DNA of 64,000 bases from Opitutia bacterium. GTDB lineage: Bacteria > Verrucomicrobiota > Verrucomicrobiia > Opitutales > T3Sed10-336. The stretch's first letter is position 1. Each line of letters begins with the position of its first letter. Both the position numbers and the translations under genes were made by a program. The notes beneath the pieces are model-generated. The model was given only the letters and a program-made list of their open reading frames with translations, did not search any database and had not been told where the DNA came from. Where the stretch lies: the NCBI GenBank assembly GCA_050506795.1, contig JBJHCF010000003.1, positions 143,477 through 207,476 on the forward strand, given 5' to 3'. Shown here piece by piece: positions 3,691-64,000 of the stretch.

Positions 3691-6600
3691 GTTTCCAAGC
3701 CACTTGGGTGCGATAGCGACAACCGGGCCAAGGCGGCATGGGACCGGCTCAAGAGGTTTCCAAGCCACTTGGGTGCGATAGCGACGGATTGCCGGAAGGG
3801 CTGGCGGCCATGTATTATGGAGTTTCCAAGCCACTTGGGTGCGATAGCGACGCTTCCGGGACTTGCTGCTGCTGATCCGTCTCTTGAGTTTCCAAGCCAC
3901 TTGGGTGCGATAGCGACGGGAAACGCATACCTGTTTAACTTTTCGTGCGAGGATGTTTCCAAGCCACTTGGGTGCGATAGCGACGATGCAGCAGTCGATC
4001 CCCGGGATAGGGCAATACGTGTTTCCAAGCCACTTGGGTGCGATAGCGACCGAACGCGGGCTATTTGCAGACGCTGAAGCGTACGGGTTTCCAAGCCACT
4101 TGGGTGCGATAGCGACGGCCGGCCGCTACTCACCAAAGCCGGAGCGCTGAAAAGTTTCCAAGCCACTTGGGTGCGATAGCGACCGTTTTCCCTTCGCGCC
4201 GGGAGGGGCGGGTTTCACCGTTTCCAAGCCACTTGGGTGCGATAGCGACACGACCCCGGCCGCGTTCCGCGTCAATGCGGTAAACGTTTCCAAGCCACTT
4301 GGGTGCGATAGCGACCCTGGAGTACAAGCGTGCTGCCTGGCATCCCGCAACGTTTCCAAGCCACTTGGGTGCGATAGCGACGCAGGAACTGCGTCAGGCG
4401 GTGGCGGCGGATCCGTTGTTTCCAAGCCACTTGGGTGCGATAGCGACACCGACGAGGATTTCGTGCGCTGGGATGGCGCGATCGTTTCCAAGCCACTTGG
4501 GTGCGATAGCGACGCAACTTTCGTAGTCAGGGCGGGTTGGGTCTTGGAGCGTTTCCAAGCCACTTGGGTGCGATAGCGACGATTCGGGGTTGTTCCTGCT
4601 CTTTCTGGAGAGTTCGGGTTTCCAAGCCACTTGGGTGCGATAGCGACGGCCTCGGAAGGGAAAGGATGGATGAGAATTAGGGAGGTTTCCAAGCCACTTG
4701 GGTGCGATAGCGACGATTCGGGGTTGTTCCTGCTCTTTCTGGAGAGTTCGGGTTTCCAAGCCACTTGGGTGCGATAGCGACTTACCGACGATTTCGACCA
4801 TGACGACGGCACGTTCACGTTTCCAAGCCACTTGGGTGCGATAGCGACGGTCCAAAAGGTGGTTTCTTTGCGCTGGCGGGCCAAGTTTCCAAGCCACTTG
4901 GGTGCGATAGCGACGGCGCCATCGCCGAGTGGATGAATGTCCAGAGCGAAGTTTCCAAGCCACTTGGGTGCGATAGCGACCCGGAACATTTGATGGGGCG
5001 CGATCCGACATTGAGATGTTTCCAAGCCACTTGGGTGCGATAGCGACGAGCCATACAAGGGAACCCTGGCACTGACGGTTCTAGTTTCCAAGCCACTTGG
5101 GTGCGATAGCGACCCGGCCGTCGCCGCGATGGACCAGGCGCTCACCAACAGTTTCCAAGCCACTTGGGTGCGATAGCGACGGAGAGCGTCGGCGGCCCGG
5201 TAGTAGAGATCCGTATGTTTCCAAGCCACTTGGGTGCGATAGCGACGACGAGCAGCCCATCACCCCGCAAAACCTTTCCGAGGTTTCCAAGCCACTTGGG
5301 TGCGATAGCGACAGGTTGTCCACCACCGGCGCGTCGCCGCCCGTCGGGGTTTCCAAGCCACTTGGGTGCGATAGCGACTTCCCGCTCCATGGCGGGCGGA
5401 TCGGCGAGAGTTGCAGTTTCCAAGCCACTTGGGTGCGATAGCGACCGTGCTGATGCCCACCAAAACGGCCAGGATCTGGTGTTTCCAAGCCACTTGGGTG
5501 CGATAGCGACCACGCACCTCCCTCAGTGTTTTGTAGGCGCTCCTGGGTTTCCAAGCCACTTGGGTGCGATAGCGACATCCCGAGGTAAATGAGATTGCGC
5601 AGTTCTGAAGGAGTTTCCAAGCCACTTGGGTGCGATAGCGACCCCACCTGGTCATTCGGCCGCGAGGGCAACCAGATAAGTTTCCAAGCCACTTGGGTGC
5701 GATAGCGACCTGAGAGCGGCGAGGACGAAGAGGAAGAGGATTACAGTTTCCAAGCCACTTGGGTGCGATAGCGACGGAGATTCGGTGAGATCGTAATTCA
5801 AACTCTCCAATGTTTCCAAGCCACTTGGGTGCGATAGCGACATCGAGGAGAGGCGACGGACGGACGGGCAATACACGTTTCCAAGCCACTTGGGTGCGAT
5901 AGCGACCCTGGCCGCCGATCTCCGCGAGGCGATCGATCACCGTTTCCAAGCCACTTGGGTGCGATAGCGACCAAGTGAGAGAGGATGCGGCTCTGCGTCA
6001 ACAAATGTTTCCAAGCCACTTGGGTGCGATAGCGACGACCGGTTTCGGGGTGCCCTGGTTGCCGGTGATCGGGGTTTCCAAGCCACTTGGGTGCGATAGC
6101 GACGAGCCTTCCGTTGCTCACGAAGGATCGGCTCAATCTGTTTCCAAGCCACTTGGGTGCGATAGCGACGGCAAACTCGCTCGGATTCGCGCCGCCATTG
6201 CCGGAGTTTCCAAGCCACTTGGGTGCGATAGCGACGCGGTCGCGGGCGTGTTTGCGGGTGAGTTGTTCGAGTTTCCAAGCCACTTGGGTGCGATAGCGAC
6301 GGTGAAAAACCCGCCTCTAAACGGGCAGGAACGCAAGTTTCCAAGCCACTTGGGTGCGATAGCGACCCGCGCAACCCTCGGCGTCATCATCCCAGACCTT
6401 CATCGTTTCCAAGCCACTTGGGTGCGATAGCGACTCGGAACGATGCTCGCCCTGACCCGAACCGTTTCGCGTTTCCAAGCCACTTGGGTGCGATAGCGAC
6501 CCTGGGAGGTTTTGCGGAGTTTTGAGTGGCTGTCTGTTTCCAAGCCACTTGGGTGCGATAGCGACTACGGGTCCGGGGATCGGTCTGGGCGATTACCTGG

Positions 6601-6830
6601 GTTTCCAAGCCACTTGGGTGCGATAGCGACTCAAACAGGCGGAGCCGGTCGACTCTCCCGGATCGGTGTTTCCAAGCCACTTGGGTGCGATAGCGACGCG
6701 CGAAACGTCGGGGACATGCGGGGAGGCGGGAGGAGTTTCCAAGCCACTTGGGTGCGATAGCGACTTCGGCAGCTTGGCTCGGGATCGAATTGTTTCTTTT
6801 GTTTCCAAGCCACTTGGGTGCGATAGCGAC
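3691..6830 (-). CRISPR. CRISPR array: 48 copies of a 30-bp repeat (minus strand GTCGCTATCGCACCCAAGTGGCTTGGAAAC) and 47 spacers of about 35-38 bp
   Basis: Repeats counted by hand from 3691 to 6801, period about 66 bp. Orientation inferred from the 3' GAAAC end and from the position of the leader and cas2. Confidence 0.99.
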
Positions 6831-6976: not shown

Positions 6977-7237
6977 TCAGAGGATATTGGAAACATGTCC
7001 TTCGCCCGTGCCAAGTTCTTCTTTTTCGAGCATCTTTTCGTTATCGACCTTAAAGAAGACGATGTAGCTACTCGGATGGCGTACTTTTTTCAGGAGATGC
7101 TTGATTTCAACATATTGAGCTTCAGTCACGTTTCCTTCGAAAACGGAACGTTGATTCCACATCAAATGCTTTTTCAGTGACTTGTGGAGCTTCGCGCAGT
7201 TTTTCCGGTCCGTGTCGTAAACAATAATCAGATACAT
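6977..7237 (-). CDS. cas2: CRISPR-associated endoribonuclease Cas2
   Basis: 86 aa with N-terminal MYLIIVYD and a QRSVFEG motif; directly downstream of cas1. Confidence 0.95.
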   Translation of the reverse strand: MYLIIVYDTDRKNCAKLHKSLKKHLMWNQRSVFEGNVTEAQYVEIKHLLKKVRHPSSYIVFFKVDNEKMLEKEELGTGEGHVSNIL

Positions 7238-7276
7238 CGAGAATACGGTTCAAAGTTTCAATTCTCAGGTTCGTGT

Positions 7277-8323
7277 TCAGTAGTTGATTCGGTGAGGTTC
7301 GTAGGGCGCGTCTTCCAAAAGGTGCTTGATCAGCTTGTAGCAGTCGAGCCGGAGCAATTGTCGGTAGGAAACATGACGATTCAGCCGCGGGTGCGCGACA
7401 GTCGTCTTCAAGAGTTCGTCCCAGCGTTCAAGGATTTTCTTCCGCGAGGCATCCTTGAGAAGGACTCCGTTTGAGTGGGCGTGAAAATCGGAGGCGCCGA
7501 TCTCCTGTCGGTCCCATAGGCGGAATAGAAGGCGGTCGACCAGCATGGGTTTGAAGGGTTCGACCAAATCGAGGGCGAGGGAGAAGCGACGAGACTGGGG
7601 GGAATGGAGATAGCTGATCCCCGGGTAAAGGGCGGTCCGGTAGAGTTCGGACACCATGGCGGTGTAGAGAAGAGAATTCAGAAACGAGATGAGGGCGTTG
7701 AGGGGGTTGTCGGGCGGGTGGTACTTGCGAGTGAATTTTTGGCCGGAGTCCGGGAGCCAATGTCTCCAGCATCCGTAGTAGTAGCGGCGTGCGGAGCCTT
7801 CCAATCCCATTTGACCGTCGGTATCCGGGGTCTGGTCGATCTGGTTCCGGAGGGCTTCGCTTTTCGATATTTCGGCGGCGACATCGGCGCCGCGTCGCTG
7901 ATAGTACCGGAGATTCGACAGGAGATTCCGAAAGGTTGCGTGCAGAATCTTTCCGGAAATATGAAGGCGCCGTTGCGGATCGCGGAACGCCTCCCCCTGG
8001 CGGATCACAAGGTCGCCGGAGAGTTGTTCTCCGTGGGGCAGAAACGTCCCGGAATGGTGACCGTAGTAATTAAAGAAGTGAACGGGAATTTTCTTTTGGG
8101 CGAGAAAGTTGAGCAGCTTCGAATTTAGGGAGGTTTCGCCGAAAACGTAAATCGCATCGACGCTTTCGACCGGGAGGTGAACGCGTTTGTCGTGAGCGCC
8201 GTCTTCGAGTATGGGCGAATCTTCGTCGGAAAAAACGCTGTCTTCGGACAGGGTAACCAGTTCGAAGGTCAGACTGTTGTCTTTACGCCGCAGCCGTCCG
8301 GATCGTGTCAGGTAAAGGTTCAT
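7277..8323 (-). CDS. cas1: CRISPR-associated integrase Cas1 (type I-B-like)
   Basis: Motifs GRLRRKDNSL, MGLEG, PPDNPLNALISF, SYLH, SLALDLVEPFKP. Confidence 0.97.
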   Translation of the reverse strand: MNLYLTRSGRLRRKDNSLTFELVTLSEDSVFSDEDSPILEDGAHDKRVHLPVESVDAIYVFGETSLNSKLLNFLAQKKIPVHFFNYYGHHSGTFLPHGEQLSGDLVIRQGEAFRDPQRRLHISGKILHATFRNLLSNLRYYQRRGADVAAEISKSEALRNQIDQTPDTDGQMGLEGSARRYYYGCWRHWLPDSGQKFTRKYHPPDNPLNALISFLNSLLYTAMVSELYRTALYPGISYLHSPQSRRFSLALDLVEPFKPMLVDRLLFRLWDRQEIGASDFHAHSNGVLLKDASRKKILERWDELLKTTVAHPRLNRHVSYRQLLRLDCYKLIKHLLEDAPYEPHRINY

Positions 8324-8435
8324 TCGGGCTTTGAATTTTGGATCGCGGATTTTCGATTACACAAGGGGAACGGATGTATTGATGGCGGAGGGCAGATGAA
8401 CGTTCAAGCAAGCTGGAAGCATGCTCAACTTTCGT

Positions 8436-8948
8436 TCAGGAAAAACAAAATTCGAAGAAGGCGCAGCTCTTGCAGTAAGGAAGTTTCACGACCGATGGAG
8501 GGCGGTCCCGGGAGATGACTTGCCGGGCTTCGGCCAGGGCGTCCTCTACCTCCCGATGGAACGCGCCGTTCCACTCGATCTCCTTCGTTCGTTTTTGTTT
8601 GGGATAATGAATGCGGGCGCCGCGGATGTCGATGCCGTGGTCACGCATCCACACCATGTAGTACTTGACCTGAAGCTCGTCGGCGTAAGCCGGCGTTTTA
8701 CCTTTCTTGGTCTCGTGAAGTATCCCTTGTTTGAACTCCGCCCAATCGATCACGCCGACATCGCCGAGGGGAATGTCCTTTTCCTTCCGGTCGAAAGTCG
8801 AGTTTTGGATGTGCTTCCCGATCTTCACGTTGACGTGAGCGTTTTCCGGCTTGATGCCGTGTGTGTGCAGCCAGAGTTTGCGGCGGCAGATTTTCAGGTA
8901 GGTCAGCGCCGTGGCGGTAACGGGAGCGGGCGGGCTTGACATGGCCAT
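8436..8948 (-). CDS. cas4: CRISPR-associated exonuclease Cas4
   Basis: CRRKLWL, RecB-like ID...ETKK...QVKYY, and C-terminal CKSCAFFEFC Fe-S cluster ligands. Start is at 8948 or 8942; the longer ORF overlaps the antitoxin gene. Confidence 0.93.
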   Translation of the reverse strand: MAMSSPPAPVTATALTYLKICRRKLWLHTHGIKPENAHVNVKIGKHIQNSTFDRKEKDIPLGDVGVIDWAEFKQGILHETKKGKTPAYADELQVKYYMVWMRDHGIDIRGARIHYPKQKRTKEIEWNGAFHREVEDALAEARQVISRDRPPSVVKLPYCKSCAFFEFCFS

Positions 8949-8973
8949 GTTTTTAGAGGAACCTGGCCATGCG

Positions 8974-9309
8974 ATGCAAGTGAAAACCGCGGAGTTAAAA
9001 AACAACCTGAGCAAGTATCTGCGACGAGTGCGGGAGACCGGGGAGTCGATAACCGTTTGCGACCGGGACAGGCCGGTGGCGGTTCTTTCGCCGTTGCCGG
9101 CGGAGCAAGTCGAGGTGGTGGAGAATCGCGAATGGCTGAAGGAGCGGGAACGGATATTGAAGAAAGCGAAGCGGTTCGGCGTTCGCCTCACCATGCCCAA
9201 AAAGAAGCCGCGACCGATGCGGGAACTCGGGATTTATCCGACGGTGGCGCCGGACGGGCGGACGGACATCAAGACGATCGACCTGGTGCGCGGCGGACGC
9301 GATTATTGA
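8974..9309 (+). CDS. Phd/YefM family antitoxin
   Basis: MQVKTAELKNNLSKYLRRVRETGESITVCDRDRPVAVL is a typical Phd/YefM N-terminus; it sits directly upstream of a PIN toxin gene. Confidence 0.88.
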   Translation: MQVKTAELKNNLSKYLRRVRETGESITVCDRDRPVAVLSPLPAEQVEVVENREWLKERERILKKAKRFGVRLTMPKKKPRPMRELGIYPTVAPDGRTDIKTIDLVRGGRDY

Positions 9310-9315
9310 GGAGCG

Positions 9316-9717
9316 ATGGTAACCTACTGGGACACGAGCGCGCTGCTCGCCTTGCTTTTCGAAGAAGTGCATTCCGCTCGGGCAAAGGCGGCCAACGACC
9401 GGACTGATTCCTTCCTTGCCTGGCGATGGATCGAAGTTGAGGCGCGCCTCGGGTGCGACCGACGAAACGCAAATCCGATCCAGCTGGATTTTCTCGACCG
9501 GTGGTTGAGCAACGCGGAATACGCAAATCTTCAGGAAGACGACTATCCCGTACTGATCGACCTCGGTCTCCGCCACAAACTCCGCGCTGCCGACGCCGGA
9601 CACCTGCACTCCCTTCTCCAGGTCCGCCGCCTCTTTCCCGAGATCGCTTTTGTCTGCTTCGACGAAGCCCTGACCGCCGCCGCGAAGGCGGAAGGAGTTG
9701 CGGTTTGGGAGGGGTGA
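9316..9717 (+). CDS. vapC: PIN-domain (VapC family) toxin
   Basis: 133 aa with acidic PIN motifs YWDTSALL, EVE, LRAADAGH, FVCFDEAL. Confidence 0.9.
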   Translation: MVTYWDTSALLALLFEEVHSARAKAANDRTDSFLAWRWIEVEARLGCDRRNANPIQLDFLDRWLSNAEYANLQEDDYPVLIDLGLRHKLRAADAGHLHSLLQVRRLFPEIAFVCFDEALTAAAKAEGVAVWEG

Positions 9718-9731
9718 GTGGGCGCAGTCAG

Positions 9732-12086
9732 TTATATTACGATTCCTGGGCCTCCCACAGGCGTTTCAGAAAATTCCAAACCTCGATCAGCACTGTAAGG
9801 CTGGTCCGCCAACATAATTCGGTGTTCGGAACAGCGTGTGATCAATTGCTTGGCGCTCAGCATCCTGAAATGACCGTGCGAAATTGGAACCGTTAACATC
9901 CCGGCCTCAAGGTATCTTCCTTCGGCATGAAGCTCCAGGAATTCCTGGAAGAGAGATGATGGAAGAATTTCAGTTCCGTCGAAAAGGGCTTCGAACTGCT
10001 CAACGGCATCTTCGTCGGACTGGAACGCGATCAGCCGCTTCGAACCACAAATGCTCTCGAACGCTTCAATACCATTTTCAATACACTCTTCGATTATTTG
10101 CCGTTCCGGAGCGTAGATTTCATCCAGCCATTCCGACACCGTTGCTTCATCCAAGATTTCCCCATCATGTTTTTTTAAGTGTTCGACCGTCCGATGAAGC
10201 AGAGCCTCCTGCCCATAAGGACGTCTCCAATCCACAGGTTCATTGAAAACGATGACAGGGCGGTGATCGTGTAACCGCCGGCGATTAACCCGCCCAAAAC
10301 GCTGAAAGAGAGCTTCCAATGGGGCGGGTTCGGTGAACAGAACATCAAAGTCCACGTCCAGGCTTACCTCGACAACTTGCGTAGCTGCCACAATCAACCC
10401 CTTTCCGTCCTGAGAATTCGTGCATTTTAAAACGTAATCCTCTTTTTCAAAGCGATCACGTGCGGTAAACCGGCTATGAAGCAGCAACACTTCCAGTTGA
10501 TCCTCTGATTCGCGAAGCGCTGAAAAAACCTCTTGCGCCGTCTTAACCATATTGGCGACGACCAGAACTTTCATTCCTAGCCGGGCTTTTATCAGAATTT
10601 CTTGTATTGATGCCTCAGCCGTTACTGGACCACTTATGACCGTCATGCGATGCCGCTTGAATTCTTCGAATAATGCAGGCGCTGCTTCCACTTTCGCGCA
10701 TGGGGCTAGTGCCTCGGCGCAGCGTTCGTTGAGCCAAGTCGGCATGGTAGCCGACATGCAAAGGATCCGGCCCTGGCACTGCTCGCGTAGAGCTCGAAGC
10801 AGCCCGAGTATCAGGCCAAGGCGCTTCGGCTCGTAGCCATGAATTTCGTCGAGGATGAACCGGCCATGTCGCAGCATAAGCCATTGGGCTTCGTAACCGG
10901 GCAGCCGAAATGCCGCTCGCAGGAGCTGGTAAGGAGTGGCGACCATCACGGGGTTTGTGGCCAATTTCGAAAGCGAACGACTTTGCTTTGCCCGATGAGA
11001 CGCTGTAAGAAAGTCCACACCCTGTTCGTCCAGGTCCCGATAAAGCGCAGCCGTGGCGCGACTGTGTAAAAGAGCGGTTTGTGCTTCGCCAAATTCGTAT
11101 CTGTCACGAATTCGTTGATACATGGCATTGATGCTCGCTTGAAACGGAAGGACATAAAATAGTGATGGCGCACCCGCCGCCGTTTCCAGATTCCGTTTTG
11201 CCCAGAATAGAGCCGCTTCGGTCTTGCCACTTCCCGTCGGAGCTCGCAGGAGGACGTTTCCTTCGATTTCTCCACACTCGCGTTGGTGTTCAAACCAGTC
11301 GGTCCGTGTGCGCGCCAAGAATTCGATTCTCTCCAAATTTGGCTTGGAAAGCGTCTCGGCACCAGCACTGGCGAGACGGTCGGCTTCGAGGATTAGCCCG
11401 CGCAGGACTAGAAGCTGACGACGGAGACGGGGGTTACCGTTCCTGTTGCGAAAAGACGATTTCTGTTCTTTGAAAAGGCAATCGAAAATTCTCAAAGCCG
11501 CTTGGATCAGTTCAGGTGCTTTCTGAAAGAAACCAGCAAGCTCCTTTTGGCTGAAAGCTAAGCACGTCGCCGGAAGATCTCCGACAACGGCAGATCGAGC
11601 GGTGTCTGCCTCTTCCACCGTCCACCGCCAAAGAGCGTCGATAATATCGTAGGAGATTTCCGAGCGCCATCTTTCATCTATAACGGATTCGGAAATCTCC
11701 GGTTGATCGGTTATGTAAGTTCGTTCGATAAAATCATGGTCGCGGTGATGGGAAACGACCGCCGCGGCCGCGAACTTGAACTCTTCGCTGTCCGGCTCAA
11801 ACACCCAAGCTAAGAACGGCAGAGACAAAACCTCATGGCGATATCCCCAAGGGGTCTTCGTCCGCAGTTGGCGCTGGAACCCGGGAGCCGCTTTCCCGAA
11901 ATCATGAAACCAAACTGCCCAAGAGACGATTTGCCATAGTTGCGGGAGTTCGATCTCGTCCGCTAAAGCCGGTAATCGCTGGCGCAACTGCCCCAAGCGA
12001 CGCATTACTTGCCGGGTATGTTCAGGTAGCGTCTCGCCGCCTGGCACAGGGCTTTTGGCGTAGAACCTTTCTGCCTCAATCGGCAT
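9732..12086 (-). CDS. cas3: Cas3 HD nuclease-helicase
   Basis: EH...FHDFGK HD domain, APTGSGKTE, DEIH, MSAT, TQVVEVSLDVD, QRFGRVNR. Start is at 12086 or 12107. Confidence 0.97.
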   Translation of the reverse strand: MPIEAERFYAKSPVPGGETLPEHTRQVMRRLGQLRQRLPALADEIELPQLWQIVSWAVWFHDFGKAAPGFQRQLRTKTPWGYRHEVLSLPFLAWVFEPDSEEFKFAAAAVVSHHRDHDFIERTYITDQPEISESVIDERWRSEISYDIIDALWRWTVEEADTARSAVVGDLPATCLAFSQKELAGFFQKAPELIQAALRIFDCLFKEQKSSFRNRNGNPRLRRQLLVLRGLILEADRLASAGAETLSKPNLERIEFLARTRTDWFEHQRECGEIEGNVLLRAPTGSGKTEAALFWAKRNLETAAGAPSLFYVLPFQASINAMYQRIRDRYEFGEAQTALLHSRATAALYRDLDEQGVDFLTASHRAKQSRSLSKLATNPVMVATPYQLLRAAFRLPGYEAQWLMLRHGRFILDEIHGYEPKRLGLILGLLRALREQCQGRILCMSATMPTWLNERCAEALAPCAKVEAAPALFEEFKRHRMTVISGPVTAEASIQEILIKARLGMKVLVVANMVKTAQEVFSALRESEDQLEVLLLHSRFTARDRFEKEDYVLKCTNSQDGKGLIVAATQVVEVSLDVDFDVLFTEPAPLEALFQRFGRVNRRRLHDHRPVIVFNEPVDWRRPYGQEALLHRTVEHLKKHDGEILDEATVSEWLDEIYAPERQIIEECIENGIEAFESICGSKRLIAFQSDEDAVEQFEALFDGTEILPSSLFQEFLELHAEGRYLEAGMLTVPISHGHFRMLSAKQLITRCSEHRIMLADQPYSADRGLEFSETPVGGPGIVI

Positions 12087-12801
12087 TGGAGAAATGGTGA
12101 AACTCAATCAAGTGAGGTTCCCCGGGCGACAGCGCCGCATCCGCCCAGAGTTCCAGCGATCCATCAAGGCAAACAGCGCGATTTGGTCCGGCCAATAGAA
12201 ATTGGGAGACGGCGATGTACAAGCCCCACGATCTATTTTCCCGATTCGTAGGGTCCATCACCCTTGGCATTCGGAGCATTTCACCGGCGGGGAGAACCTC
12301 GGCCATCTCAGGAGAAAACAATCCGGGACCCAAGCGACCATGGTTCGCCTTTTCCAGCGTAACCTTCGTGACCGTTCTGATCGAAGCCAGATCCTGAGAT
12401 CGTCCCAAAACCGGCGGATAGCGAGGGGAACGAAAAGCATTTATCCAGAAATCCAGAGATTCACCCGCCAAATACAACGTCAATCGGGGAAAGATCAACC
12501 ATTCGCGCGGCAGGATATTGCTGTTCCCCTCGAGGTTGAATTCTTTCGATGGACCCCGGGTCGATTTGTTTGGCTCCAAAAACCAAATTTTTTCGATATC
12601 GTCGATCCGCTCACCTTCGCATTCAAAGCGATAAGCGAATGAAATACTGGCCGGGTCCGGAGGGATTCCGGCAGCACAGGTCAACAGACCGTAAATTGTC
12701 GAAGGAGGCGGCATCGGGAATGTTGGCTGCCGCCCAATCAGAAAATGCGGAAAGCGAAACGAGGCGGTAGGGCCGCTAATTTCAATGCGCAAGGCATTCA
12801 T
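12076..12801 (-). CDS. cas5: Cas5 (type I-B)
   Basis: TASFRFP...PTFPMPPPSTIYGLL and LGRSQDL motifs. Confidence 0.93.
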   Translation of the reverse strand: MNALRIEISGPTASFRFPHFLIGRQPTFPMPPPSTIYGLLTCAAGIPPDPASISFAYRFECEGERIDDIEKIWFLEPNKSTRGPSKEFNLEGNSNILPREWLIFPRLTLYLAGESLDFWINAFRSPRYPPVLGRSQDLASIRTVTKVTLEKANHGRLGPGLFSPEMAEVLPAGEMLRMPRVMDPTNRENRSWGLYIAVSQFLLAGPNRAVCLDGSLELWADAALSPGEPHLIEFHHFSNAD

Positions 12802-12812
12802 ACTCTCTTAAA

Positions 12813-13886
12813 TCAATTGAACCAATCCGGGTTTTTATCGACTAAATCGGCGAGACGCTCAAAGGCATGCCGCGGATGGCAGAGTTCCAGTCCATGGGGG
12901 AAACTGCTCTGAAGTTTTTCGAGGTTCGATTTGAGTTTCAGACGGCCTTCCTCGCAATATCCGGTCGTCCATCCGACGAATACGGGAGAAAGAGTTTGAT
13001 CTCCCCACACTTCCCCGGCTTCCCGGAGTGAATCGAGCGCGGGGGTAATCTCTCCGTTTTCCATTGCCTGAACGCTGTATTGGAAAGGGTTGTTCGCACC
13101 CTTGAACGCGGCGGCAATGACGATGACCGGCGATACGTCCGTATAATGCAATCCCAGTTTGGCACCACCAGACACATGCGGCACAGCTCTGAGCAGCATT
13201 CCGACACGGTTTTGCCTTGTTTTGATAGGAAGCCGGAATGCCTTATTCGGTTCGTCGTTTTCAAGGTTCTTTTCTTCGCAGAGCTTCCTTCGTTCCTTAT
13301 CCAGATTCAGATGCCCGGTCTGGTTAAGGTAGGAAAACGAGCCGGAGGTCGAAAGGTCGAGGGAAAACAATCCTTTTAGCGCGGTCTTGTAGAACTGATG
13401 CTCGTGCGGCACCGCATCGCCTTCATGCCGGCTCATGGTTCCGAAGTCAGAGGTGATTCCATCGGTCATTCCGACTAAAGTTCCCACGCGAAAGGGAGAA
13501 ACACGCGTTATGGTGACTTTCGCCTCAACCGGGGTTGCGCCCACCATCGTTGCCCGGCTTTCAGCTGCCTCGACCTTCTTTCCTGGCGCTCGCATATAAC
13601 CGAAAAGGTCGTCGTCACTATAACGGATAGGATTGGCATCGGTGTAGGCTACCTTTGCCTCTCGATAAATCGGGGCTCGTTCCCATTCGTCCGGGTAGAG
13701 CCTCTCGACGGTCTCGCGAAGCCACCGTCGATAAGCTTGGGCGGAAACATAGGGATATTGTTTGCGACCGACACGAAGAAACTTGGTTGCGACAGCATTC
13801 TCCATTGTCGTGCCAGACGCTGCGCCAGCATTGTTCAATGCGCTCCCAGGGGCGTCGATAATTTGAATTCCGGTTATATGGGCCAT
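12813..13886 (-). CDS. cas7: Cas7 (Cst2/DevR-like, type I-B)
   Basis: PYVSAQAYRRWLR, DDLFGYM and RVSP motifs; located between cas8 and cas5. Confidence 0.92.
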   Translation of the reverse strand: MAHITGIQIIDAPGSALNNAGAASGTTMENAVATKFLRVGRKQYPYVSAQAYRRWLRETVERLYPDEWERAPIYREAKVAYTDANPIRYSDDDLFGYMRAPGKKVEAAESRATMVGATPVEAKVTITRVSPFRVGTLVGMTDGITSDFGTMSRHEGDAVPHEHQFYKTALKGLFSLDLSTSGSFSYLNQTGHLNLDKERRKLCEEKNLENDEPNKAFRLPIKTRQNRVGMLLRAVPHVSGGAKLGLHYTDVSPVIVIAAAFKGANNPFQYSVQAMENGEITPALDSLREAGEVWGDQTLSPVFVGWTTGYCEEGRLKLKSNLEKLQSSFPHGLELCHPRHAFERLADLVDKNPDWFN

Positions 13887-13935: not shown

Positions 13936-15420
13936 TCAACGAAGCTCATCGATTGTTTCAATTGCAATTTCGTCCGGGGCGACAACCTCATCGTCTTCCT
14001 CACGTCTGAGCGCGGGCCAATTCTTGAGTTGCTCAAGGCAGCGTATGCGGATCATATCACGCGCTAGGAAAAATCCTCCGTGAGGAACGTTTTCCTCGTC
14101 CTCGAAGATCTCCGTAAAATCGTCCAGGGTGAGGAGAAGTTTGGGTTCGTTCTTCAACAGCTTCAGCGCGGTCCGAACAAGAATTGCGCGGAACGCCGTA
14201 TAAGAATTGGTGGACTGAGTCCGTCCCATGATCTGGCTGAAGAGCTTCTTATCGTTTGTTTTCTGGATGATGCCAGAAAGTTCATCGGCCAGGAGTCGTA
14301 TTTTCTCAATTTGTTCTTTTTTCATAAGGATTACAATTCGCAGAAAGACGGAAAGTAGATCCCAGAGCTGAATAGGAGTCGCATCCAGATTCTTTCGGTA
14401 CCCCGCCAGGTTTTCGGCATAACTTTGAAAATAGCGTCGAAGGAAGGCTTGGACATTGGCGGGAAGGCTGTAGAGATCATCGTATAAGGAGTTGTTGGAA
14501 ACCCGATTTTTCTCGTTGGTCAAAACATCGTCGGAAGACTCCGTTTTACCCTTCCACCAAAACGCATTGACAAAGGTCAGCCACGACTGCCGAAGGTCTG
14601 CCATGTTCACTCGGATTAGGAATCGTGAGACCATGGGCTGCAGCGAATAAATATCGATGGCGCAACCCTGACTGCTGTTCGACAGAAAGTAGAGAATTAC
14701 GCCGGGGCGTTTAGTCGAACGCGACAAATCCCGTGTGAGTTTGGATTCCGCTGCGAAAATATCATCCAATCGTTGGGCTACACGAGTTTTTTGACCCTTC
14801 CTGTCGGGTAACGCTGTTCCATGAAGTCGAGCTTTCGCGAGATCGGTTTGTTGCTGTTCATACCAACCGAACAAGAAGGAAAGCAGGAGATCTTTGCTTT
14901 CCATGGCGACAACCGGCATTCGTCCGCTTACCACGGGAAGTACTTGAGGAATCGCGAGCAGACAGCCATAGGCGATTCCTGAAAGTGGAATCTCCGCACG
15001 GCCGCTAGGATAGAAATTCACCTGGTTTCGCCCCTGAACCATTGGAAATTGATCCCTCGCCGCCCGGATGACCGCAGGAAACTCCTGGAAGAAAGCACAA
15101 CGATCAACCGTCGTGTCTTCGATGTCCGACAGACTGTTCACGAACCCAAACGCTTCCTCAATCGCCTTCTTTCGTTTTTCCCCTTTGAATGCCGGATTAT
15201 CGAAGCTGTTTGTGGTAAAGAGGATTCCAGTTGGCTTCTTCAACAAGCCATCGAGATAATCCTCTTTGATGCGGTTCATCGTTTTTACCCAATCAGTCCA
15301 AGTCACCTCGCAAGGATTTCCCACCTCACAAGCCAAAACGACTGAGGCCACGCCCGTGTCGATTAGGGGCTCGCCAGTCCACCGGAGGAACTTAGAGCGG
15401 TTGGTTCTGGTATCGGTCAT
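13936..15420 (-). CDS. cas8b: Cas8 large subunit (Cas8b1/Cst1-like)
   Basis: N-terminal WTGEPLIDTG, FP...NFYP motif, helical C-terminal Cas11-like domain; first gene of the effector module. Confidence 0.8.
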   Translation of the reverse strand: MTDTRTNRSKFLRWTGEPLIDTGVASVVLACEVGNPCEVTWTDWVKTMNRIKEDYLDGLLKKPTGILFTTNSFDNPAFKGEKRKKAIEEAFGFVNSLSDIEDTTVDRCAFFQEFPAVIRAARDQFPMVQGRNQVNFYPSGRAEIPLSGIAYGCLLAIPQVLPVVSGRMPVVAMESKDLLLSFLFGWYEQQQTDLAKARLHGTALPDRKGQKTRVAQRLDDIFAAESKLTRDLSRSTKRPGVILYFLSNSSQGCAIDIYSLQPMVSRFLIRVNMADLRQSWLTFVNAFWWKGKTESSDDVLTNEKNRVSNNSLYDDLYSLPANVQAFLRRYFQSYAENLAGYRKNLDATPIQLWDLLSVFLRIVILMKKEQIEKIRLLADELSGIIQKTNDKKLFSQIMGRTQSTNSYTAFRAILVRTALKLLKNEPKLLLTLDDFTEIFEDEENVPHGGFFLARDMIRIRCLEQLKNWPALRREEDDEVVAPDEIAIETIDELR

Positions 15421-15439
15421 GGTTTGGCGTTGTCCGCAT

Positions 15440-15512
15440 TGACGGGAAAGGAGCTTAGTTCTTTTTTAATGAGAAACATGTTTTCAAGCCACTTTAAGGT
15501 ACGATAGATTAC
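15440..15512 (-). ncRNA. Putative crRNA-like regulatory RNA: solitary degenerate repeat (15480-15512) plus a spacer starting at 15479
   Basis: Plus-strand GTTTTCAAGCCACTTTAAGGTACGATAGATTAC versus array repeat GTTTCCAAGCCACTTGGGTGCGATAGCGAC: the first 15 nt are 14/15 identical and GGT-CGATAG is retained. The adjacent spacer matches 15733-15747. The 3' end of the RNA is not defined. Confidence 0.8.
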
Positions 15513-15697
15513 TATGGCTCCTTTCCCGTCAGATCGCGGCAAATCTTTCGTGCAAGGCGTTCTGGTATCTCGTTATGGCGAGGGACAGCTTGCCATTCTC
15601 CTGTCTTCGTATTCTCCCAGAGGCTGTGTCTTGACCCTTCACGTCGGAGGCGACATCCATGGCGACGAAGAAACCGGAGAAGTAGCGCTCTCTTCAT
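15512..15697 (-). CDS. hicA: HicA family toxin (RNase)
   Basis: 61 aa, basic, with REGSRH catalytic-His motif and VPRHNEI...LARKI. Confidence 0.92.
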   Translation of the reverse strand: MKRALLLRFLRRHGCRLRREGSRHSLWENTKTGEWQAVPRHNEIPERLARKICRDLTGKEP

Positions 15698-15730
15698 CCT
15701 GACTTGAAAACCTTTCCGTTTGAAAAATCC

Positions 15731-15760
15731 AATTTAATGAGTAACATTGGATCTTTTCAA
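15731..15760 (-). promoter_or_regulatory. Putative sigma70 promoter of hicA and cas8, containing the protospacer (15733-15747) and CCA PAM (15748-15750) for the crRNA-like RNA
   Basis: Minus strand reads TTGAAA-N17-TTAAAT (or N18-TAAATT), 33-63 bp upstream of the hicA ATG. Confidence 0.7.
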
Positions 15761-15813
15761 TCGAACGCAACCAGACAAGTCAAGCACTTCTTGGGGTTAA
15801 GTCACCGTTATTA

Positions 15814-16026
15814 TCAGGAGATGGCTTCGATAACCACGGACTCGGTCTTCGCTCTGCCGATCTCCGTGTTTCTTCTTTCTTCGAAGATTAAGTCGATCGC
15901 CGCCTTCAGATCTTCGATACACTCTTCGCGTGTCTTTCCCATCCCGTTGGCAGCGGGCACTTCGGCACACGTGGCTGTCCACCAATCGCCTTCCTCGCGT
16001 AATATGGCTGTGAAAGTTTGGATCAT
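15814..16026 (-). CDS. hicB: HicB family antitoxin, short form without a DNA-binding domain
   Basis: FTAILREEGDWWTATCAEVPAANGMGKTREECIEDLKAAIDL is the HicB N-terminal fold; the protein is only 70 aa. Confidence 0.88.
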   Translation of the reverse strand: MIQTFTAILREEGDWWTATCAEVPAANGMGKTREECIEDLKAAIDLIFEERRNTEIGRAKTESVVIEAIS

Positions 16027-16080
16027 AGTTCTCCATTACAATGGCTGATTCATTCGCGGGAAGCAAATGGATTTCCTTCA

Positions 16081-16332
16081 TCAACCCCAATCCTGTGCGC
16101 GGTTCAATTTTTTGAGGATCCGATCAATGCGAGGATCGGACGGGTCGGGTTCTGGAACGGATAGCCGGCCAACCCATTTCCTTACGAAGCTGCCGTCGAA
16201 TTCGCCTTCCTCCACAAAAGCCCGAAGATCCTTCTCGACTACTGCGGAAAGGGAAATTCCTTCATTCCGTGCCATCAATCGGGCTTTGCGAAGCACCTCC
16301 GGATCGATTCTAACGGTGAGATTCTTTTTCAT
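16081..16332 (-). CDS. Ribbon-helix-helix antitoxin-like protein (DUF6364-like)
   Basis: MKKNLTVRIDPEVLRKARLMARNEGISLSAVVE fits the RHH pattern. Confidence 0.75.
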   Translation of the reverse strand: MKKNLTVRIDPEVLRKARLMARNEGISLSAVVEKDLRAFVEEGEFDGSFVRKWVGRLSVPEPDPSDPRIDRILKKLNRAQDWG

Positions 16333-16371
16333 TGGAGTAAGAATCAAGTGCATTTGCCTTCCTGAACATTT

Positions 16372-17238
16372 TCATCCCGCGTCCACCGCTCCGAAGCCCA
16401 TGGAGTTCATTTCGCCGAGGCCGGCGGACCAGATGAGGCGCTGGAGTGGGATTGGGGCGGTGACTTTGACCGGTGCGGCCCAACTGCGGACGGGGATATT
16501 TTTGATGTGAAAGAGCCGGGTTCGGGCCTTGCCCGGATCGGCGAGTTCCACCTGGACGTCCTGGCGGGCGGCCCAGGCTTTGGTTTCCGTCGGAGTCGCG
16601 CCGTTGAGACCGGCCCAGCGGGCTGCAATGTCGGGACGGCCGGTTTCGTCAGTGAAACGAAGCCATTTGTGGAAGAGGTTTTGACAGATCAGTTCCGCGC
16701 AGTCGTGGCCTTCGGCCGGATTGTCGGGCAGGGCGTAGTGCTTGGCGCCGGTTTCCCGGTTTTTCCAGCTCGTCACGATCGACGCTTCTCGGACGGGTTG
16801 CCAGAACATTGTTTCCCGGAAGGCGGGTTGGGGGATGACTATGGCGGATTTGATCAGGAAGTCGGAGGCGGCCAATCGAAGATTTCCGGCGGCGAGGAGT
16901 CCTTCACTGACCGCCGATAACAATTCCGGCCAGGGGGAAAACAGGCGAAACGTCGCTTCGCCTTCGATGAGGAGCCCAGGGCGGGTTGTTTCGCCGTTTT
17001 CGTTGTCAGGCAAGTGAGATCCTTTTCCGCCGCGATTGACCGTCATGCGACGGCACCGGAGCGGCGAAAATCCGAATAGTTTGATCCGGTCTTTATGCTG
17101 TTCGCCGTGGTGCAAATCGGCGGCGAACTCCGGCTGAACAGTTTCAAGGGATTGATACAATGCGGCCGAAAGAAACGGATAATAGGAAAACGGCAGGTTC
17201 GCCGGTGTGGTAGGGGCTATGGTAACAGCGAATTGCAT
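16372..17238 (-). CDS. cas6: CRISPR-associated endoribonuclease Cas6
   Basis: C-terminal glycine-rich loop AGLGEMNSMGFG and N-terminal LH...KLFGFS. Start placed at MQFAVT (17238). Confidence 0.9.
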   Translation of the reverse strand: MQFAVTIAPTTPANLPFSYYPFLSAALYQSLETVQPEFAADLHHGEQHKDRIKLFGFSPLRCRRMTVNRGGKGSHLPDNENGETTRPGLLIEGEATFRLFSPWPELLSAVSEGLLAAGNLRLAASDFLIKSAIVIPQPAFRETMFWQPVREASIVTSWKNRETGAKHYALPDNPAEGHDCAELICQNLFHKWLRFTDETGRPDIAARWAGLNGATPTETKAWAARQDVQVELADPGKARTRLFHIKNIPVRSWAAPVKVTAPIPLQRLIWSAGLGEMNSMGFGAVDAG

Positions 17239-17585
17239 GCGGAGATGACGCCTGGTGGAGTTAGCAATTGACGGGCTTAATCGAGGAAGTGCGAGGTGGC
17301 CGGAATCGAAACGACAAGATAGCCTCAACCAAGTCAAACGATTTCGAACGCCATCGGTTCCTGCCGACATCATTGCGCCGGACCGAGGCCCACCGAATCG
17401 TTTTTGTGGATGGGGGTTGAACTCTTGGGTGGGGCCGCTATCGAGGGGTTCGGCGTAGAGTGAACCTGTGTCACGGCGGACACAGGTGGATCTTTTCATT
17501 TGGGTGCCTTGAAAATAGTGAGAGCCGGATGCTCGCGTTCCCGGTGGTGATTTTTTTGGTCGCGGACCACGAAAGCGCGGGTCGG

Positions 17586-63612: not shown

Positions 63613-63771
63613 GCGAGGGGCGCGATCAGGACGCGGACATCCCTGCCCGCCAAAGATCCGTAATCTATGATCAAATAATTCCGGGCGGACCGCAGCTCCG
63701 TAGTGTGTCCGCTCGAGGACGCTTCAGGCCGACAGTTCCAAAACCGACACGGCGGTTCGCCCGCTTGAGCA

Positions 63772-64000
63772 GGGCGCTACGAGTTCCGCACTCCCAGTAG
63801 CTCCGTGCTTAAGCCGGAGTCCTCTTGACGGGAACCGGCGCGCCCACGCCGCACGATTCGCCCGCTAAAAGCTGGGCGCTACGAGTTCCGCACTCCCAGT
63901 AGCTCCGTGCTTAAGCCGGAGTCCTCTTGACGGGAACCGGCGCGCCCACGCCGCACGATTCGCCCGCTAAAAGCTGGGCGCTACGAGTTCCGCACTCCCA
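63772..64000. repeat. 102-bp tandem repeat, at least 2.2 copies, running off the window end
   Basis: GGGCGCTACGAGTTCCGCACTCCCA starts at 63772, 63874 and 63976, with identical sequence in between. Confidence 0.93.

Follow-up and report, generated by a model that had tools for sequence, protein, structure and literature searches.

Can a type I-B CRISPR-Cas system (short palindromic repeats that are clustered and regularly interspaced, and associated genes) hold a protein toxin under the control of its own effector complex, Cascade? This question is raised by a locus of an Opitutia bacterium (assembly GCA_050506795.1, contig JBJHCF010000003.1). The window analyzed here, a 64-kb stretch of this contig, contains a complete type I-B CRISPR-Cas locus on the minus strand with the gene order cas6-RHH-hicB-hicA-pseudo-repeat/mini-spacer-cas8-cas7-cas5-cas3-cas4-cas1-cas2-array, in which RHH stands for a ribbon-helix-helix protein gene. 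The original prediction held that the degenerate repeat and mini-spacer behind hicA encode an RNA that directs Cascade to the promoter of hicA and the effector genes. Our analysis indicates that this element is very probably a CreA/CreR-type guide through which Cascade represses the promoter in front of hicA and the effector genes. The proposed coupling to HicA, plausible and appealing as it is, would make the locus a variant of the CreTA and CrePA systems. The argument concerns the following features, in which PAM is the protospacer-adjacent motif:

15480-15512, minus strand: pseudo-repeat (psiR), a solitary degenerate CRISPR repeat, from alignment to the array repeat
15444-15479, minus strand: mini-spacer (psiS), nominally 36 nucleotides (nt), of which the first 15 nt (15479-15465) match the target
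15733-15750, minus strand: target, consisting of CCA as a putative PAM (15750-15748) and a protospacer (15747-15733) with a 14/15 match
15731-15760, minus strand: sigma-70-like promoter TTGAAA-N18-TAAATT, a consensus prediction
15512-15697, minus strand: hicA, encoding a HicA mRNA-interferase toxin of 61 amino acids (aa) (PF07927 with 34.8 bits, cut-off 27)

Among the sequences outside the array, the pseudo-repeat clearly stands apart as a copy of the repeat of this locus. It begins 0-4 nt from the hicA stop codon (TAG, 15514-15512), and the 28-33 nt after this stop align with the array repeat GTCGCTATCGCACCCAAGTGGCTTGGAAAC. Between 15507 and 15480, the pseudo-repeat agrees with the array repeat at 23 of the 26 aligned positions and carries a 2-nt insertion. 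This local alignment scores 35, compared to at most 26 in the other 263 of the 264 strand-specific 430-nt chunks into which the window outside the array was divided as background. The predicted repeat directly behind the hicA stop codon was thus recovered. Its 3' end reads TTGAAAAC (15487-15480) versus TTGGAAAC in the array, and seven of the eight handle nt are kept. Neither the array repeats nor the pseudo-repeats fold into a structure; at -1.3 kcal/mol, the pseudo-repeat has a minimum free energy that is not better than that of shuffled sequences, and an Rfam scan of 15350-15850 returned sub-threshold microRNA noise only.

The guide ATGTTTCTCATTAAA (15479-15465) and the site ATGTTACTCATTAAA (15747-15733) agree at 14 of 15 positions with a mismatch at position 6. 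The site is preceded by CCA (15750-15748) and located 268 nt upstream of the guide. On the guide side the match begins exactly at the 3' end of the repeat, and on the target side exactly after CCA. Beyond position 15 the likeness is random (positions 16-18 mismatch, with 4/21 identities over the rest of the nominal 36-nt spacer), so that the mismatch and the stop after 15 nt are as originally described. When position 6 is left free, the 15-nt match is found once in the 4,942,667-base genome, the guide itself excluded, whereas 0.007 such matches would be expected by chance genome-wide, and 2.8e-6 within ±1 kb. When 200,000 shuffled guides were tried, a fraction of 7.5e-5 had a CCW-flanked 5+5 seed match within ±1 kb, and 1,917 native 20-mers that served as mock guides gave no such match. 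The guide-target match is real and non-random.

The target is located within a predicted promoter on the minus strand, TTGAAA (15760-15755)-N18-TAAATT (15736-15731), with 9/12 consensus matches; it occupies the promoter spacer and overlaps the -10 box. The consensus scan agrees here with the TTGAAA/TAAAT element of the original prediction. The start of hicA lies 36 nt past the protospacer, directly downstream of this promoter. Two promoter-like sites were found in 15300-16500 (mean of shuffled sequences: 0.6), of which TTGAAA-N18-TAAATT is the only one on the minus strand, and the same consensus scan found no terminator-like site between the target promoter and cas8. The other promoter-like site, TTGAAA-N16-TAACAT (15720-15747, plus strand), overlaps the Cascade target and is directed into hicB in antisense. 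The -35 box TTGAAAAG (15755-15762, minus strand) resembles the pseudo-repeat handle TTGAAAAC (15480-15487), and the whole promoter can be read as the handle-plus-guide string with five extra nt (ATCCA), which supply CCA, the putative PAM, and the 18-nt spacing. This likeness may be a coincidence or a trace of the origin of the guide/target pair.

Relatives of this Cas8 are rare. A collection of 5.8 billion clustered proteins contains three others, and searches of 60 related genomes and of IMG/VR gave none. JGI metagenomes contain one distant Cas8 locus, and 185,579 species genomes contain 28 Cas8 loci, of which only one, here called L002, exceeds 33% identity. L002 belongs to an Ignavibacteria metagenome-assembled genome and is the closest relative among the species genomes (39-40% identity). 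Its order of cas6, WYL regulator, target, 59-aa open reading frame (ORF), psiR1, 35-nt psiS, psiR2 and cas8 parallels the layout in the window. The target is CCT followed by ACATAATTGGATGTTTGTAC, and the 59-aa ORF after it has a strong ribosome-binding site. The repeat-derived parts are psiR1, the 3' part of the repeat AATAGAATTGAAAG, and psiR2, its 5' part TTAATCGTACTACTATAGA; the psiS of 35 nt between them starts with ACATATTTGGAGGGTTGAAC. Guide and target agree at positions 1-5, 7-11, 13, 15-17 and 19-20 and mismatch at 6, 12, 14 and 18, and three of these four mismatches (6, 12 and 18) are at positions flipped out by Cascade. Shuffled guides reach the seed match with a CCW flank at 1.15e-4. 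On the strand opposite the small ORF that separates target from mini-array, a terminator-like hairpin (7802-7820, minus strand) may be a sign of antisense transcription in L002.

The guides and targets of the window and L002 are unrelated in sequence, and each guide matches its own CCW-flanked site about 270-315 nt upstream. Different guides that each match their own target amount to covariation at the level of the whole element, which is what the original prediction had proposed to look for in homologous loci. In our view, no other argument speaks as strongly for a function of the match. The flank of the target is CCA in the window and CCT in L002, and CCW/YCN has been experimentally established as the PAM of the type I-B system of C. 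difficile (PMC8406132), which supports the earlier assumption that CCA and CCT serve as PAMs in some type I-B systems. The two flanking pseudo-repeats that are usual, though not obligatory, for CreA are present in L002 and not in the window; CreA forms with one or two repeats have been described (PMC9458426).

The guide lies within a full set of type I-B genes, whose remaining members and neighbors are:

16372-17499, minus strand: cas6, an ORF of 375 aa (PF21350, PF01881; TIGR01877 below cut-off)
16081-16353, minus strand: RHH protein of 90 aa, of the DUF6364 / HicB C-terminal DNA-binding type (PF19891, 34 bits, and PF05534, 26 bits, both above cut-offs)
15814-16026, minus strand: hicB-like antitoxin gene of 70 aa, HicA-binding domain only (ESM Atlas, weak PDB match, synteny)
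13936-15420, minus strand: cas8b1/cst1, large subunit (NCBIfam TIGR01908, 31.2 bits against a cut-off of 19.4)
12813-13886, minus strand: cas7 (Cst2/DevR) (NCBIfam TIGR02585, 160.6 bits)
12076-12801, minus strand: cas5 (Cas5t) (NCBIfam TIGR01895, 103.3 bits)
9732-12107, minus strand: cas3, a fusion of HD nuclease and helicase (domain profiles)
6977-9200, minus strand: adaptation genes cas4 (8436-9200), cas1 (7277-8323) and cas2 (6977-7237) (domain profiles)
3691-6830, minus strand: CRISPR array in which 48 identical 30-nt repeats alternate with 47 spacers (35-38 nt)

The type I-B assignment is based on TIGR01908, TIGR02585 and TIGR01895, which all score above their cut-offs, and the locus has Cas8b, Cas7, Cas5, a fused Cas3, a separate Cas6, Cas4-Cas1-Cas2 and an array. 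The Cas6 domain matches begin at residue 102 of the 375-aa ORF; probably the true start is internal, or else there is an unexplained N-terminal extension. Within the array, an identical pair of spacers (4581-4617 and 4715-4751) represents a duplicated spacer-repeat unit. A second toxin-antitoxin (TA) pair is located between cas3 and cas4 on the plus strand, composed of a Phd/YefM antitoxin (8911-9309) and a PIN-domain toxin (9316-9717). At the far end of the window, a 102-nt tandem repeat (63756-64000, 2.4 copies, 97% identity) is cut by the window border.

The toxin gene is predicted to be intact, as every one of the 15 alignment columns without variation in 12 homologues is conserved in HicA, including G21 and H24. 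The 70-aa protein encoded upstream has no Pfam or NCBIfam match and was assigned as HicB-like based on an ESM Atlas score of 0.94 versus HicB-family clusters, a weak PDB match (3kwr, E 0.046) and synteny, because its homologues are encoded directly upstream of hicA in nine other genomes. A search for HicA in 200 other genomes of the phylum gave a match in 16 genomes with 19 loci, and a HicB homologue is detectable beside hicA in nine of these loci. The hicB stop overlaps the hicA start in all nine homologous pairs; the overlap measures 4 nt in eight pairs and 1 nt in the ninth. The window does not have such a single tightly coupled operon: a gap of 116 nt separates hicB from hicA and holds the promoter-like site and the Cascade target, from which we conclude that hicA is no longer translationally coupled to hicB. 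Instead, hicB closely follows cas6 and the RHH gene, with gaps of 18 and 54 nt in this series, and hicA heads the unit with the guide and effector genes. The match of the RHH protein is to the C-terminal DNA-binding family of HicB (PF05534), and the 70-aa HicB-like protein has the toxin-binding part only, so that the two genes look like a HicB split in two, in reverse order. No counterpart of the RHH gene was found next to hicA at the 19 other hicA loci searched.

Partial pairing of the guide lets type I Cascade bind without licensing Cas3, which is the basis of CreA and CreR. We consider it likely, though well short of assured, that a CreA/CreR-type RNA guides Cascade in the same way to repress hicA-cas8-cas7-cas5-cas3 in this bacterial, Cst-type I-B system. 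From the arrangement we infer processing, binding, repression and a single transcript. One transcript from the targeted promoter would carry hicA, the pseudo-repeat, the mini-spacer and cas8-cas7-cas5-cas3, as there is no other promoter-like or terminator-like site on the minus strand. Cas6 would cleave in the pseudo-repeat, 8 nt before the mini-spacer, leaving the 8-nt 5' handle UUGAAAAC. Cascade would assemble on handle and spacer, and the 3' end would be trimmed, which is proposed because a second pseudo-repeat is absent. The loaded complex would recognize CCA and pair with 14 of the first 15 nt, i.e. two and a half 5-nt segments, in the spacer/-10 region. This pairing would be too short to license Cas3, so that Cascade would stay as a repressor and exclude RNA polymerase from the promoter. 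The loop would be self-limiting: less Cascade would mean more transcript, hence more guide and again more Cascade.

The level of hicA would follow Cascade occupancy since hicA is the first gene of the unit. When Cascade is lost or inhibited, the promoter would open, the effector genes would rise and HicA may outrun HicB, resulting in growth arrest by way of addiction or as an anti-anti-CRISPR response. Given the rest, this toxin release is the least secure step, with about even odds. Taken as a whole, the locus may represent a type II toxin rewired as a CRISPR guard, a reading that we offer tentatively and regard as somewhat less than probable. Here, hicA would have been cut from hicBA and placed behind a promoter shut only by Cascade with a guide from the hicA-cas8 transcript, so that HicA would report on the integrity of Cas6, Cas8, Cas7, Cas5 and the guide. 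The result would be a three-layer module of protein antitoxin, RNA guide and effector that punishes loss or anti-CRISPR inhibition. Under this reading, different genes could occupy the toxin position between target and guide: in L002 it holds an unrelated orphan ORF, and in a close relative apparently nothing.

Several observations weigh against these proposals. A HicB-like protein antitoxin is encoded upstream of hicA, which means that guide and Cascade are not the sole antitoxin; HicB may neutralize any HicA made, and the locus is at best a dual-control variant of the CRISPR-repressed toxin module. We know of no CreR for which a guide in the cas8 leader of the transcript under repression has been demonstrated. 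The element itself carries a G-to-A change in the handle and the 2-nt insertion in the repeat body, and no convincing second pseudo-repeat follows the mini-spacer, with a score of only 10 for the best alignment of the repeat in 15400-15479. The sequencing runs listed as holding DNA of the window include no RNA. A 151-nt metagenome contig with a ~90% identical hicA keeps CCA and target positions 1-6 and differs at positions 7-9 and 12; as its guide is not visible, this contig speaks neither for nor against the model. In L002, the 59-aa ORF in the toxin slot has no family, no relatives, no ESM Atlas match and no sign of toxicity.

The conservation of the arrangement is also limited. When related loci with an array in reach were scanned with their own repeat, a pseudo-repeat with a target was present in one of ten, namely L002. 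A scan of 29 loci with a generic handle motif was positive in the window and L002 only, and other pseudo-repeat/target scans of related loci were too noisy beyond L002. The guide-target feature thus appears to be confined to a small clade. Instead, most related Cas8b1 loci, at least 16 of them, have a WYL regulator directly upstream of cas8:

HTH-WYL-WCX proteins: L004, L006, L008, L009, L011, L012, L015, L018, L019, L021, L022, L024, L026, L027, L028 and L030

The scan for WYL domains comprised 80 of the 112 extracted upstream ORFs and left out six L002 ORFs, the cas8 ORFs and short overlapping ORFs. The WYL regulator sits upstream of cas6-cas8 in L006 and at 6323-7405 in L002, where the window has RHH-hicB-hicA.

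The array offers no help with the PAM either. Searches in phages, plasmids, the own genome and genomes of the class yielded no exact protospacer for the array's spacers from which the own PAM could be derived. The whole array gave two marginal matches in INPHARED phages (E 0.3 and 0.9) and one in PLSDB plasmids, within a glycosyltransferase gene; the array of L002 gave no match in phages. The best match of the 47 spacers in the own genome (blastn-short) spans 28 nt with two mismatches and originates from a low-complexity spacer, and marginal matches were obtained in 36 of 401 genomes of the class. The nine best approximate matches have 23-31 identities over 35-38 nt and non-CCN flanks, the PAM-side flanks of the four closest being GCG, CTT, TAA and GAT. 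Because several approximate matches display codon-like mismatch spacing, they are probably diverged homologues of the true targets.

Among the other explanations of the locus, the one that survives best, although we judge it unlikely, is that the element is a CreR-type autoregulator only. Guide and Cascade would throttle cas8-cas7-cas5-cas3, hicBA would be passenger cargo in a shuffling hotspot, HicB would always cover HicA and the loss of Cascade would be harmless. The HicB-like and RHH genes directly upstream of hicA fit this explanation, as do the widespread CreR elements without a toxin (bioRxiv 10.1101/2023.03.10.532045). Further support comes from near relatives, for which public metagenomes hold contigs that are fragments only. 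On a soda-lake contig with ~91% identical cas8, 409 nt join 15263 to 16153 (cas8 codon ~53 to the RHH gene), compared to 889 nt in the window. Only ~180 nt would thus remain from the RHH gene to cas8, and hicBA is probably missing in this relative. Two metagenome contigs, including the soda-lake one, leave the window sequence at 15261-15263, and the Cas8 protein P0002 (89% identical overall) is only ~50% identical over the first 55 residues, which points to a recombination breakpoint in cas8 (15261-15263 and Cas8 residues 1-55). The departures of the contigs and the divergent N-terminus suggest that the mosaic cas8 5' end and the upstream control region form a swapped cassette, in line with the gene-shuffling hotspots of Shmakov et al., who use this term for such regions (PMC10120712). 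However, a single cargo insertion should have kept the overlap of hicB and hicA, whereas promoter and target lie precisely between the two genes in the window. Moreover, a small ORF separates target and mini-array in L002 as well, and HicA is predicted to be intact.

Far less probable is a direct RNA antitoxin, in which the repeat-derived RNA downstream of hicA binds and neutralizes HicA or HicAB and the promoter match is secondary. The pseudo-repeat that starts within 4 nt of the hicA stop codon would suit this role, and in Leptotrichia Cas13a loci the array follows right after hicA and crRNA (CRISPR RNA) suppresses HicA toxicity (PMC13448076), but the CRISPR type differs, the repeat is unrelated and unstructured, and both the CCA-flanked 14/15 promoter match and the HicA-less L002 are left unexplained. 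It is equally improbable that the element is an inert remnant, with the pseudo-repeat as recombination debris and the 15-nt identity as a local duplication of the AT-rich promoter without guide function: the likeness of the -35 box to the pseudo-repeat tail, the reading of the promoter as psiR-tail/psiS string plus 5 nt and the mosaic nature of the region among relatives speak for it, but the likeness stops upstream of TTGAAAA (4/12) and after position 15, the match boundaries coincide with the repeat end and the putative PAM, and L002 is built on the same principle from different sequences, with mismatches in the periodicity of Cascade.

Cascade repression of a toxin through a mini-spacer is of interest because CRISPR-repressed toxins explain the persistence of CRISPR systems that are costly and easily lost or inhibited, and allow them to strike back at anti-CRISPRs. 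The toxins tested to date comprise small RNAs (CreT) and a single protein of phage origin (CreP). If the guard reading is true, type II toxins could be recruited by inserting a Cascade-targeted promoter between the antitoxin and toxin genes. The design would be compact, with a guide cut from the 3' end of the toxin mRNA that is at the same time the cas8 leader, and could possibly be reused in kill switches of the ATTACH kind (PMC12980059). It would also provide a concrete mechanism for the long-noted enrichment of TA genes inside CRISPR-cas loci.

With respect to the literature, neither HicA nor a type II toxin split from its antitoxin gene by a target promoter was found in print under crRNA-like control, supplements being outside the search. 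The term 'HicA' is absent from the main texts of PMC10120712, PMC12737573 and bioRxiv 10.1101/2024.10.29.618823, whose supplements may list HicA cargo. Literature searches combining HicA with CRISPR-repressed toxins or mini-arrays gave no match, and only PMC13448076 is relevant among the matches listed for HicA with CreTA. From the original interpretation of a Cascade-repressed HicA, the guide-like element aimed at the hicA promoter stands, reinforced by L002 and the split of hicBA; its novelty was overstated, as the principle is in print.

CreTA was reportedly described by Li et al. in 2021 for the type I-B system of Haloarcula hispanica. Type I-B CreTA and CreA are also the subject of Cheng et al. 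2021 (PMC8501985) and Cheng et al. 2022 (PMC9458426). According to bioRxiv 10.1101/2023.03.10.532045, CreA is located in the cas6-cas8 gap and represses both the toxin promoter and cas8. The window shares with CreTA the type I-B system, the cas6-cas8 gap, an RNA derived from a degenerate repeat and a short seed match to a promoter site next to a PAM (putative in the window), and the repression of toxin and cas8 operon by one guide is proposed for the window as well. The toxin of CreTA is a tRNA-sequestering RNA, whereas that of the window is HicA, a protein of a type II family accompanied by a protein antitoxin gene, hicB. The window further differs in its single pseudo-repeat instead of two, in the guide being located on the transcript of the genes to be repressed and in its bacterial host.

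CrePA comes closer with regard to the toxin. In the type I-F system of Acinetobacter baylyi, the KilAC-domain protein toxin CreP is repressed by CreA together with Csy (bioRxiv 10.1101/2024.01.05.574328). Both systems have a protein toxin downstream of a promoter that is matched by psiS beside a PAM (putative in the window), and for both the sensing of effector inhibition is proposed. CrePA is distinguished by its type I-F effector, a CC PAM, two pseudo-repeats, a phage-derived KilAC toxin and, as described in that preprint, no protein antitoxin; it was experimentally tested, whereas the window is known from sequence. CreR represents autorepression of the effector via partial complementarity to the cas8 promoter (bioRxiv 10.1101/2023.03.10.532045; PMC10120712). 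Mini-arrays were predicted by Shmakov et al. to regulate cargo TA genes, which are enriched between mini-arrays and cas genes, including in type I-B (PMC10120712). The worked cargo examples there are of type I-D, and the main text describes no TA operon split by a target promoter.

HicA itself has been linked to CRISPR in the CCTA loci hicA-CRISPR-hicB-cas13a, in which Cas13a activates HicB and crRNA occludes HicA (Chen et al., Nat Commun 2026, PMC13448076). These loci resemble the window in the separation of hicA and hicB by a CRISPR-related insertion, the repeat-derived RNA just after hicA and the coupling to a Cas effector. They differ in that they are of type VI, act by protein-protein and RNA-protein contacts instead of promoter repression, and have a whole array between the genes instead of a promoter and target. 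The locus in the window has no cas13a and type I-B effector genes, and does not belong to CCTA. With canonical hicBA operons, finally, the window shares the invariant HicA residues and a small HicB-like partner encoded directly upstream, but it replaces the gene overlap of the nine homologous pairs with 116 nt that carry the promoter-like site and the Cascade target. The principle of a guide-repressed toxin or cas8 is thus already published for CreTA, CreR, CrePA and the mini-arrays of Shmakov et al., and what appears to be new is the proposed control of a HicA toxin that is split from its antitoxin gene.

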